A DNA stretch of 64,000 bases from Candidatus Obscuribacteraceae bacterium (GTDB taxonomy: Bacteria > Cyanobacteriota > Vampirovibrionia > Obscuribacterales > Obscuribacteraceae): contig JBGAHS010000002.1 in the NCBI GenBank assembly GCA_044226015.1, positions 433,571 through 497,570 of the forward strand, given 5' to 3'. The notes under the pieces were generated by a model. It was not told the DNA's origin and searched no databases. It worked only from the letters and a program-made list of their open reading frames with translations. Shown here piece by piece: positions 43,823 to 46,609 of this stretch. A program made the position numbers and the translations under genes. Within the stretch, counting starts at the first letter, position 1. Each line of letters opens with the position of its first letter.

Positions 43823-43860
43823 AACCGTATCTCAACATAGGAGATACGGTTTTCCTTTTT
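43823..43860 (+). terminator. Intrinsic terminator after cysS
   Basis: AACCGTATCTC / GAGATACGGTT 11-bp stem followed by a T-rich tail. Confidence 0.8.
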
Positions 43861-44108
43861 AGACTCACGACATTCGTGAGCGATCCGAACAAGCCGCTTG
43901 TTTTTGATGTCTACGCTGAGAGCTTCTGGAGATGCGATTTTCACGCCGACGAATACAGCAAGATTGACCGCACGGATCTAAGGTTTTTCTGCGCATAAAG
44001 TGAGCTCTGCAGTAAGAAAAACAATTTTCAATTCTTTTTTTGCATTTTCATTGAACTTTTTCGACCTCATTTACGTTTTAAACAACAGAAGGTATGAGGT
44101 AAAGAATA

Positions 44109-45095
44109 ATGCGAAAGAGAAAAGAGAAAAGCAAATTCGCAGAACTGTATCCAGCATTTTGTAAGGAATTCCCTGATGAAGAACATTGCGTTAGGATGCT
44201 TAGTCAACAACGCATGAAAAAAGTCATCCCTTGCAAGAAATGCAAAGGTACAAAATTCGTACACACAAATACCTACAAGCAATATTACTGCGAAAATTGT
44301 GGTCAGGAATATTTCACCTTTGCTGGAACCTATTTCGAGAGGTGTACATATTTCCGCGCGCGGGTGGCTGCAATCTGGTTTAAACAACGCAAGATACGCC
44401 CCTCGCCACTCGAATTTGCCCAGTACTTTGGCATGGCTCTTTCCACAGCTCAGGACATTTTGAACAACGTGGGGTTTATCTCTCTGGAAAAAATGAATCA
44501 GAGAGAAACGGAGACATTGTCCTCATCAGAATTTCTTGAAATATACTGTCGTCGCAGTCTGCAAACTCCAGCCCGAGAGCATCCTCGCGCAGAGCAAAAC
44601 GAACTAGACGATCACTTCAAAGAGATAGACCAGACTACAGATGAGGCTTTTAATGTTGAGCTAGATGAAACTGAACTTTTGGTGCTCGACGAATTGTCCA
44701 CAGAGAAGGGAAAAAACGTTGATGACCTGATCAGCAAAACCAGCCTGGAATTTTCGGATATCTTGATGGCTCTGAGCCAGTTACAGTTCAAAGGGCTAGT
44801 GGATTTTACAGCAGAACAATTGTTCAAGCGAAAAAAGAAAATTCCTAAGCCAAACAATAATGAGGCACAAAAAAAGTTCATTGAGAAATTCACCGAGTCG
44901 ATTAAAGATAAGTGCCACCGTATAAGCAGAAAATACATTCAGGTCTACCTCGCGGACGCCTGGGCGACCGAACAAGATGACATATGGACAGATGAATTCA
45001 TGGCAGAACTTCTTGAACGAAAACCACTCTCAAGGGCGGCTATGCGAGCCTATACATCGCCTTATTATCTACAAATACCCTGCTGCGCCAGCTAA
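44109..45095 (+). CDS. IS1595-transposase-related protein: Zn ribbon, HTH, DprA-like winged helix and IS1595-like C-terminal helix; no intact DDE core seen
   Basis: FPDEEHC...CKKC...YYCENC...AGTYFE; LEFAQYFGMALSTAQDIL; LDETELLVLDEL...VDDLISKTSLEFSDILMALSQLQFKGLV; HRISRKYIQVYL. Confidence 0.7.
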   Translation: MRKRKEKSKFAELYPAFCKEFPDEEHCVRMLSQQRMKKVIPCKKCKGTKFVHTNTYKQYYCENCGQEYFTFAGTYFERCTYFRARVAAIWFKQRKIRPSPLEFAQYFGMALSTAQDILNNVGFISLEKMNQRETETLSSSEFLEIYCRRSLQTPAREHPRAEQNELDDHFKEIDQTTDEAFNVELDETELLVLDELSTEKGKNVDDLISKTSLEFSDILMALSQLQFKGLVDFTAEQLFKRKKKIPKPNNNEAQKKFIEKFTESIKDKCHRISRKYIQVYLADAWATEQDDIWTDEFMAELLERKPLSRAAMRAYTSPYYLQIPCCAS

Positions 45096-45222: not shown

Positions 45223-45270
45223 GCCCCAGAACAATGTGCAGCCAGGCATGGCTGCACATTGTTCTGGGGC
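45223..45270. repeat. Perfect 22-bp inverted repeat with a 4-nt loop
   Basis: GCCCCAGAACAATGTGCAGCCA-GGCA-TGGCTGCACATTGTTCTGGGGC. Confidence 0.9.
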
Positions 45271-45295
45271 TAAAATTGTCAACAACCCCGTCCTA

Positions 45296-45363
45296 CAATA
45301 AAGGCTGCACCGGTACCGATGTAGTTTTTTTGTTTTTGAGCGGTACCGGTGCAGCCTTTATTG
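45296..45363. repeat. Perfect 23-bp inverted repeat with CGGTACCG in each arm
   Basis: CAATAAAGGCTGCACCGGTACCG (45296-45318) and CGGTACCGGTGCAGCCTTTATTG (45341-45363). Confidence 0.9.
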
Positions 45364-45459
45364 GATCACGCCTACGGAGCTCCAGTTTGACATCTGGCAG
45401 CAAAAAATTTGACTCGGTGAACGCGACCAGAGTCTTTTAGTTTTCTGTTAGCAAAAGTT

Positions 45460-45811: not shown

Positions 45812-46609
45812 CTAGTTGCTGTGGCTCACTGCCGTTCCCGCTATCTGCCTGCTCGTCTCTGCATGCTGTTTAAGCGCAGACATAACACCAGGCATATCTG
45901 TCCGAACCTGACGCTTTATCAGCGGCGGTGGGAGAAATAAACCACCATTAACATAGCTTGCATACGTCACCAGAGTTGAGTTGCCATCGCTTTGTGGTTC
46001 AAGTTTCCAAAAGCCATCAACTTCTCTGAAATCGCCACTCACTCTGTGCCATTCGTACAGCTTGTTAGCAGTTTCTTTCACTTCGATAACATAATCAAAG
46101 GTTGTCGGCACACCACTCGGCTTGATCTGATGCTGCACCAGCTTGGTATTACCTTTGTCCTTTACAAGTTTGCACTTTTTGAGACAAGGGAAAATTTCTG
46201 TTGCATTTTCGTAATCAGTGAGAATTTTCCAGACAGCTTCTGGCTTCACATGGACCAGAATTTTGCTCACCTGATAATTCTTATCACCAATTTTCTCTTC
46301 ATTTATTTCAACTGAACCAGCAGACTGAGTCTGCATTGATGCTTTGTCAATTGACTTTGCGCATACGCTATCAATGGATACAAATGAATTGATCGCGAAT
46401 ACGCTAAGCAATGCAAGCGATATTTTAGAAATACTCACGCGGGACCGCCCTCTAGAACTGCGACTTACTGACCGCTGTCTGTGTGCCATCAAATACAATA
46501 CTAAATTCCTCTTATGTGTCAACAAGGTTTTCAAGTATGTCAAATCGAGCCAGCAGCGTGTAATCATGACCCATAAGTACACTGCGAACGAAATTCTACC
46601 CCTTTTCAT
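45812..46609 (-). CDS. SRPBCC/polyketide cyclase-dehydrase family protein (start probably MAHRQ near 46489)
   Basis: PEAVWKILTDYE...FP, GDFREVDGFWKLEP, TLVTY; signal-like segment. Confidence 0.8.
   Translation of the reverse strand: MKRGRISFAVYLWVMITRCWLDLTYLKTLLTHKRNLVLYLMAHRQRSVSRSSRGRSRVSISKISLALLSVFAINSFVSIDSVCAKSIDKASMQTQSAGSVEINEEKIGDKNYQVSKILVHVKPEAVWKILTDYENATEIFPCLKKCKLVKDKGNTKLVQHQIKPSGVPTTFDYVIEVKETANKLYEWHRVSGDFREVDGFWKLEPQSDGNSTLVTYASYVNGGLFLPPPLIKRQVRTDMPGVMSALKQHAETSRQIAGTAVSHSN

Follow-up and report, generated by a model that had tools for sequence, protein, structure and literature searches.

A 64,000-nt stretch of DNA from a Candidatus Obscuribacteraceae bacterium, an organism known only from metagenome bins (GenBank assembly GCA_044226015.1, contig JBGAHS010000002.1, positions 433,571 to 497,570 of the forward strand; hereafter the window), carries at 44109-45095 (+) an intact open reading frame (ORF) of 328 amino acids (aa), stop codon included, behind a ribosome-binding site (RBS). 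Database entries call members of its family 'hypothetical protein' or 'putative DprA winged helix domain-containing protein' and nothing else. The protein opens with a four-cysteine zinc ribbon and a helical region resembling a helix-turn-helix (HTH), runs through a short, strongly conserved segment into a winged helix of the type found at the end of DprA, and closes with a set of conserved helices (Table 1). The initial annotation, made from the sequence letters of the window, had proposed a domesticated, catalytically dead transposase of the insertion sequence (IS) family IS1595 whose core was exchanged for the DprA domain, and had correctly described the ORF and its GAGGT RBS as intact. Here, we report that this architecture and this history of domestication are very likely right, that the gene family quite likely belongs to the regulon of an extracytoplasmic function (ECF) sigma factor, and that the family may act as an adaptor between DNA and the helicase ComM.

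We first consider the ancestry of the two ends. Taken alone, the window protein gives sub-threshold scores with all three relevant Pfam profiles: Zn_ribbon_IS1595 (PF12760; E 5.4e-4, 20.3 bits against a cut-off of 25.4, aa 22-66), DDE_Tnp_IS1595 (PF12762; E 0.065, aa 207-283, covering only positions 73-147 of a 153-position profile) and DprA_WH (E 0.013, aa 184-231), and NCBIfam adds only weak winged-helix regulator matches. Profile comparisons used alignments of 10 family sequences (A1), of eight true IS1595 transposases from the same phylum (A2) and of 83 family members (A3). With hhalign, A3 and A2 align at 99.66% (E 3e-25, 288 columns) and are collinear from family aa 13-314 to transposase aa 10-318, with high confidence at the N and C ends and near-zero confidence in the middle of the protein. 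The smaller alignment A1 pairs family aa 13-121 with transposase aa 10-123 (98.65%, E 4.8e-16), and the C-terminal part by itself reaches E 7.7e-4 at a probability of 25%, with confidence digits of 5-9 in that part of the A3-A2 comparison. PF12760 is matched by 15/83 members at E <= 0.01. When an A3 profile was run with HMMER against a 5.8-billion-protein database, scoring the 8000 candidates that share most words, the matches listed were 13 family members followed by four PF12762 transposases (E 2e-18 to 1e-16). A profile search of PDB sequences returned winged-helix chains and zinc-ribbon ribosomal proteins only (E >= 2e-4) and no transposase. The homology at both ends bears out the IS1595-like ribbon, HTH and terminal helix that the initial annotation had recognized. 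True IS1595 transposases are present in 6/151 genomes of a phylum sample, and nothing in the window's genome (G000; 8.19 Mb in 13 contigs) exceeds the DDE_Tnp_IS1595 cut-off, so that this genome holds no true IS1595 transposase.

Between the retained ends, the catalytic (DDE, Asp-Asp-Glu) core is missing. Across the 83 sequences, the invariant or near-invariant positions are the four ribbon cysteines (C45, C61 and C64 invariant, C42 nearly so), R149 (invariant) with S150, T153, H158, P159 and E162 (near-invariant), L222, L225 and E226 in the winged helix, and I272, S273, R274, K275, Y276, Q278, Y280 and L281 near the C terminus; no aspartate is among them. Only two of the 83 members match PF12762, and then only with the C-terminal part of the profile. 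An AlphaFold2 model computed from A3 (predicted local distance difference test score (pLDDT) 92.0, predicted template modelling score 0.82, no stretch below 50) has strands in the ribbon (50-52, 58-61 and 67-69), at 134-138, in the wing and at 320-324, and is helical in the remainder, including helices 82-93, 100-107 and 111-130 of the HTH-like region; the five-stranded RNase H sheet is absent from it. An earlier model from 10 sequences shows the same elements at a pLDDT of 77.7. Foldseek searches of the PDB with both whole-protein models returned winged-helix regulators only, at E >= 0.02, and VIA-align likewise turned up nothing but winged helices. The catalytic motifs are thus lost, as first proposed; the one caveat raised then, that VELDET resembles the first IS1595 catalytic motif, can be dropped as a chance likeness because the stretch is not conserved and its Asp position is Ser or another residue in the paralogues. 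The segment at aa 134-165 is the best-conserved part of the family, with a mean identity of 0.59 among eight paralogues, compared with 0.29-0.44 in the other segments and 0.12 in the acidic linker, and with pLDDT values of 93-97 in the A3 model. No counterpart of it was found in IS1595 transposases with hhalign, and its derivation from the first catalytic strand, VEvDEt, was rejected as unsupported (hhalign E 0.98; near-zero confidence in the full comparison).

The winged helix placed mid-protein by the initial annotation is confirmed both by profile, with DprA_WH (PF17782) matched by 79/83 members (best E 4.6e-18), and by fold, given that a VIA-align comparison of aa 174-244 yields Z 8.5-10.1 to MarR, Fur and ArsR-type chains and Z 9.1 to the DprA chain 3maj_A. 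MarR_2 is matched by 11/83 members (best E 1.3e-6), and TrmB, ArsR and HlyU-type regulators also give hits weaker than those to DprA_WH. The similarity to DprA is graded by taxonomy. A hidden Markov model (HMM) of the family winged helix scores 79-98 bits on 11/11 DprA C-termini from f1, the taxonomic family of the window's genome, 51-68 bits on those from f2 and f3, and 45-62 bits on those from f5 to f8, the tails from outside f1 numbering 10 in all. By BLASTP, one f1 DprA tail is 63.6% identical over 55 aa to the family member L014, the DprA tail of the window's own genome reaches 58.9%, and DprAs outside f1 reach 28-42%. This grading suggests that the winged helix was copied from the lineage's own dprA. 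The Rossmann-fold domain of DprA, DNA_processg_A (PF02481), has no match in the window protein, nor does it figure among the Pfam families recorded for the 83 members. In the third helix of the winged helix lies a near-invariant family motif, L..LEL.G, which reads L..LQF.G in the window copy.

The gene is one of a family and is not an IS. The window's genome holds eight full-length copies on five contigs, all open and 320-527 aa long; the paralogues are 31-40% identical to the window copy, and the closest pair (L002/L004) shares 65%. Among 40 related genomes, all 24 from f1 contain matches, 1-25 each, whereas outside f1 the matches cover the winged-helix stretch only, in frames of about 370-460 aa; a match of that kind in the window's genome is the real dprA. 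Scanning the prokaryotes with one genome for each species gave 73 loci, nearly all from Candidatus Obscuribacter, Obscuribacterales or Melainabacteria bins, and a protein-language-model atlas again places the family in Melainabacteria clusters. The family was found almost exclusively in metagenome-assembled genomes (MAGs) of Obscuribacterales (Melainabacteria). In total, 92 family loci supplied 86 full-length open copies, 83 of which form A3, with lengths of 292-527 aa and a linker of freely varying length. In a midpoint-rooted FastTree of the 86 copies, the eight from the window's genome form one clade and three further genomes behave likewise, which points to repeated local expansions. No terminal inverted repeats (TIRs) flank the window ORF, as had been noted at the outset, and the flanks of the eight paralogues have no shared ends, only a short upstream motif and terminator-like hairpins. 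The family is under purifying selection: 16 pairs give dN/dS of 0.086-0.371, and one more, the 17th, was saturated. In 12 loci, members of one orthologue group stand next to the same aldehyde-dehydrogenase gene; beyond that group and an antisense-frame artefact, no recurrent neighbours were found.

Two side observations concern the family as sampled. Several motif-bearing members (L073, L086, L094, L109, L114, L115 (JAJPGY01), L107, L099, L082 and L101) come from bins labelled Proteobacteria, Bryobacterales, Chloroflexota, Flavobacterium psychrophilum or Drouetiella; the L107 protein is identical to a copy from an f1 genome, and mistakes in binning or naming, not gene transfer, probably account for the odd labels. 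In L008 (G000:C4:83725-85305) and L007 (G000:C7:657702-658856), the acidic linker that joins the conserved motif to the winged helix is much longer and contains short tandem peptide repeats, GGVDGLVN-like and DSEKQ-like.

The upstream motif probably ties the family to a sigma factor. All eight paralogues carry TTGAAC(T)TTTT..N..ACGTT about 35-45 nt 5' of the ATG, the motif ending 31 nt before the ATG in the window gene, and a strict version of it occurs at 12 sites on both strands of the 8.19-Mb genome, eight of which are the paralogues. Of the remaining four, one precedes the gene of a periplasmic LTXXQ protein, one that of a DUF6088/AbiEi-like protein, and two precede genes of small proteins that match nothing in Pfam. 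Of the 73 loci in other species, five were dropped (no upstream sequence or no N-terminal match), and 63 of the 68 scored have an exact TTGAAC-N17-CGT within 300 nt upstream, rising to 67/68 when one mismatch in TTGAAC is allowed; the rest of the same loci, read on both strands, contained five exact matches over 495,162 nt (0.003 per 310 nt). A weight-matrix scan of the window's genome found 22 sites, of which the next-best precede an ECF sigma gene, dnaE, dnaB, yraN (UPF0102), comM (Mg_chelatase) and genes whose products are a DUF1800 protein, a secreted Gly-rich protein and one of VWA-like type. The sigma gene heads an operon (L022) with a putative membrane anti-sigma factor and an LTXXQ/Metal_resist protein. 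It has orthologues of 43-61% identity in 20 sampled f1 genomes, and the exact motif stands upstream of 20 of these 21 sigma loci, counting that of the window's genome, with a 16-nt spacer in the remaining one; no motif stands upstream of four sigma genes that are paralogous or more distant. AAC at -35, CGT at -10, a co-transcribed anti-sigma factor and autoregulation are described as ECF hallmarks in the available text of PMC8103513. The motif would thus be a promoter read by the L022 sigma factor, as judged from sequence, and the operon is likely the master of the regulon. In three further genomes, the stricter pattern TTGAACTTTTT-N12-CGT occurs at 16, 14 and 46 sites, compared with 1, 0 and 0 in a backwards control; 30 of these sites were inspected and precede six family genes, two dnaE and three DUF6088 genes, the sigma gene, a yraN-like gene, and genes for LTXXQ, DUF1800 and secreted proteins.

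The same exact motif was then counted within about 250 nt upstream of partner genes, with start codons approximated. It precedes comM in 18/22 f1 loci and 0/8 outside f1, yraN in 14/21 and 0/9, dnaE in 19/23 and 0/6 (one locus dropped outside f1), and comEC in 18/20 and 0/9 (again one locus dropped). The comEC site of the window's genome ends 30 nt 5' of the ATG, and the motif lies 50-180 nt upstream of dnaE, which encodes the replicative polymerase alpha subunit (G000:C10:300332-301531 (-); L233-L255). In the window's genome, cysS and gltX have no motif.

Table 1 Features of the window gene and of the sigma operon. Positions without a prefix are those of the window; G000 marks the window's genome.
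Feature	Position	Strand	Details
ECF-sigma-type promoter motif (predicted)	44051-44077	+	TTGAAC 44051-44056, 17-nt spacer, CGTT 44074-44077
RBS GAGGT	44096-44100	+	8 nt 5' of ATG; GAGG equally placed in other paralogues
Coding sequence	44109-45095	+	IS1595-derived, without DDE core, with DprA-type winged helix
Four-Cys IS1595-type zinc ribbon	44172-44324	+	aa 22-72; C42, C45, C61, C64
Helical HTH-like region	44352-44501	+	aa 82-131; homologous to post-ribbon region of IS1595 transposases
Best-conserved segment of the family	44508-44603	+	aa 134-165; strand followed by F..(I/F)F.(K/R)RS.ETPA..HP..EQ
DprA-type winged helix	44652-44843	+	aa 182-245; PF17782
C-terminal helices	44862-45050	+	aa 252-314; (H/G)(R)ISRKY.Q.YL; collinear with last IS1595 transposase helices
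Two hairpins	45223-45370		first 45223-45270, 22+22 nt, perfect; second 45289-45370, 30+30 nt, 90% complementary
ECF sigma operon (L022)	G000:C1:118234-121000		outside window; TTGAAC-N17-CGTT in front
ECF sigma gene	G000:C1:118313-118939		209 aa; Sigma70_r2 1.4e-18, r4_2 1.3e-17
Anti-sigma, L022 operon			306 aa; two zf-HC2 domains and a transmembrane segment
LTXXQ/Metal_resist protein, L022 operon			397 aa; Gly/Pro-rich repeats

Published work on DprA offers a function for the middle module. In Gram-negative bacteria, DprA uses its C-terminal winged helix to bind ComM, a helicase, directly and to draw it in for branch migration, the winged helix of Helicobacter pylori DprA shows no binding to double-stranded DNA (dsDNA), and in Vibrio cholerae the contacts run from DprA L350, E353 and L354 to ComM L455 and R497 in its Mg-chelatase domain (all as given in the accessible parts of PMC12012524). 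YraN, in turn, is reported to have co-evolved with ComM and to interact with it (bioRxiv 10.1101/2024.02.06.579203, accessible part). Because the published domain binds ComM and not dsDNA, the middle module is likelier to hook a protein than to act as another reader of DNA, which refines the 'multi-module DNA-binding protein' of the initial annotation. By analogy with the Helicobacter and Vibrio proteins, the DprA-derived winged helix would still bind ComM, and the N-terminal head may still bind DNA. Given the promoter motif shared with comEC, comM and yraN, the family would bring ComM to particular DNA; we put forward recruitment of ComM to DNA as a tentative prediction, somewhat short of an even chance.

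The account we favour joins these parts. An IS1595 transposase would have kept its head and last helices and received the lineage's own DprA winged helix where the DDE core had been. In the setting of a stress-induced, competence-like DNA-uptake response, an envelope signal would cause the membrane anti-sigma factor to free the ECF sigma factor, and the freed sigma factor would switch on a competence-like gene set together with the family proteins. The zinc-ribbon/HTH head would bind DNA while the winged helix hooks the ComM helicase, so that the head would guide the helicase-nuclease pair ComM/YraN to the DNA it recognizes. This whole reading, of a dead IS1595 derivative with a DprA-derived winged helix serving as an ECF-driven adaptor from DNA to ComM, we rate as nearly an even bet. 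A bolder version is rather unlikely on present evidence: that in Obscuribacteraceae one ECF sigma factor drives comEC, comM and yraN along with a repeatedly expanding private set of 'programmable ComM loaders', each a dead IS1595 head that selects a DNA sequence and is fused to a DprA tail that seizes ComM/YraN; such loaders would direct branch migration or cutting to selected DNA (incoming transposon ends, for instance) and not to any RecA-DprA filament.

Several observations weigh against the adaptor. DNA binding by the head is deduced from homology only, and the L..LEL motif was equated with the Vibrio contact residues by motif spacing. The window copy has Q226 instead of E and so departs from the family LEL; E353Q is tolerated in V. 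cholerae DprA (accessible part of PMC12012524), which is a different protein. The partner genes were picked from the site list of the window's genome or as obvious candidates, not blind, and a loose form of the motif is not enriched genome-wide (141 sites compared with 130 in a backwards control), being informative in upstream context only. In the window's genome, dprA, recA and five ssb genes have no motif, which makes the regulon less than a complete competence regulon; the presence of dnaE, LTXXQ, DUF1800, DUF6088 and secreted proteins leaves a general stress response equally open. Within 1.5 kb of the 92 family loci there is no comM, yraN, sigma or anti-sigma gene, so that what links the family to comM is the shared motif together with the ancestry of the domain. 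Two fairly complete f1 genomes, G022 and G023, carry the motif-bearing sigma gene but no full-length family member (comM has the motif in G023 and lacks it in G022), which makes the family an accessory part of the regulon. The stretch occurs, whole or in part, in five DNA metagenome runs, with no RNA run listed.

The serious rival is a second tier of transcription factors, in which sigma-induced regulators bind operators through the head, and perhaps through the winged helix, with no role for ComM. The head is by ancestry a sequence-specific DNA-binding module, the several diverged copies in a genome would fit a set of several operators, and the winged helix does match regulators, namely MarR_2 in 11/83 members, TrmB, ArsR and HlyU-type families and, as a fold, MarR, Fur and ArsR at Z 9-10. 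Yet it is far closer to DprA_WH (79/83) than to any regulator family, and up to 64% identical to the DprA tail of the lineage itself. In winged HTH regulators the third helix reads DNA; here that helix is hydrophobic, with L..LEL.G. The H. pylori DprA domain, moreover, does not bind dsDNA (PMC12012524, accessible part), and no candidate operator was found. On balance we regard this explanation as unlikely.

A guard against mobile or incoming DNA is a less probable alternative to the adaptor, and we give it a small chance. Here, the head would spot IS1595-type ends or other sequences, and the winged helix would bring ComM/YraN to unwind and cut them, which, if true, would limit transposon entry during DNA uptake via ComEC. 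DDE transposases generally bind IS ends with their head domain, from which the head of this family descends; true IS1595 transposases are rare in the phylum sample and absent from the window's genome; the own-genome expansions and fast divergence form a pattern common in conflict systems; and regulation is shared with comEC, comM and yraN. No target sequences were identified, however, and the pairwise dN/dS values are those of ordinary purifying selection. Finally, a decaying or non-autonomous IS, mobilized in trans or dying, would share the IS1595 ancestry and the several dispersed copies per genome, but is highly improbable and already contradicted by the open frames of 8/8 copies in the window's genome and of 86 full-length copies (92 loci), the low identity among copies with neither TIRs nor shared ends, the lack of an autonomous partner in the window's genome, the selection on the family with one orthologue group syntenic in 12 loci, and a promoter motif conserved across genera.

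Set beside known systems, the family of domesticated proteins resembles IS1595 transposases (ISXO2-like; PF12760 plus PF12762) in its F-P-D/E..C helix, four-Cys ribbon, HTH and collinear last helices (..GvS.KHLq.YL..), and in length (about 320-380 aa). It differs in lacking the DDE core, its acidic residues, TIRs and near-identical copies (target duplications are likewise counted as lacking), and in having the DprA winged helix and RS.ETPA..HP..EQ between the retained ends. With the DprA tail it shares the PF17782 domain, the L..LEL.G helix and up to 63.6% identity; unlike in DprA, the winged helix sits in a transposase-derived scaffold with no Rossmann domain, in 1 to about 25 copies per genome, and unlike the dprA of the window's genome, the family genes carry the ECF motif. 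TldR, a nuclease-dead, TnpB-derived repressor, is a comparable case, as are transposase-derived factors of eukaryotes. In these cases as in the present family, catalysis was lost, the DNA-targeting part was kept, and host regulation and purifying selection apply; here, the ancestor is a DDE transposase and not an RNA-guided nuclease, the core was replaced by a host recombination domain, and the genes probably belong to an ECF regulon. In streptococci, ComX/SigX governs an alternative-sigma competence regulon, and the regulon described here likewise places one alternative sigma-type promoter before the uptake and recombination genes comEC, comM and yraN. It differs in being of the ECF type, with a membrane zf-HC2 anti-sigma factor and LTXXQ partners, in including dnaE and envelope proteins, and in that dprA, recA and ssb of the window's genome stand outside it.

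To our knowledge, well-documented domestications of bacterial DDE transposases are few, and we know of no competence data for the non-photosynthetic relatives of cyanobacteria. In the accessible portions of the literature on IS1595 domestication, we found eukaryotic cases and IS surveys only, none dealing with domestication in bacteria, and neither this family nor a comM/yraN regulon under ECF control was described in what we searched. The domestication history is unusually clear, with both IS1595 ends kept, the core lost and a host DprA domain in its place, and the conserved motif points to a sigma-controlled programme of uptake and recombination in these non-photosynthetic relatives. Should the family bind ComM, ComM loading would gain a second, sequence-directed route, of which the family would be the first case, and its dozens of variants would make a natural set for probing ComM recruitment; even without ComM binding, annotation of these uncultured genomes can draw directly on the promoter motif and the regulon.

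Some minor features of the motif sites deserve mention. The 46 TTGAACTTTTT-N12-CGT sites belong to G190, the genome of L111, in which the regulon or the family seems strongly expanded. DUF6088/AbiEi_4-like winged-helix proteins stand behind the motif in four genomes (G000:C11:1316601-1317056 (-), L145, L154 and L162) and form a second recurrent, uncharacterised component of the regulon. The comM site at G000:C1:783028-783078 and a site at G000:C12:336148-336198 have the near-identical spacer TCTTGGCATGATTTTTA; the latter precedes a 102-aa ORF, and the two may reflect a small duplicated segment.

Around the window gene, gltX and cysS lie upstream on the same strand, followed by a terminator-like hairpin at 43823-43851. 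The two hairpins downstream sit between the window gene and a convergent gene at 45812-46609 (-) and are probably terminators; they were ruled out as a repeat family, both being single-copy in the genome. A 12-mer, AAAGGCTGCACC, was also set aside, with 1018 matches at up to two mismatches compared with about 600 expected by chance in a rough count. Between L002 and L004, the similarity begins at the upstream motif and stops about 215 nt past the stop codon, beyond two hairpins, which suggests that the double terminator may belong to the duplicated unit.

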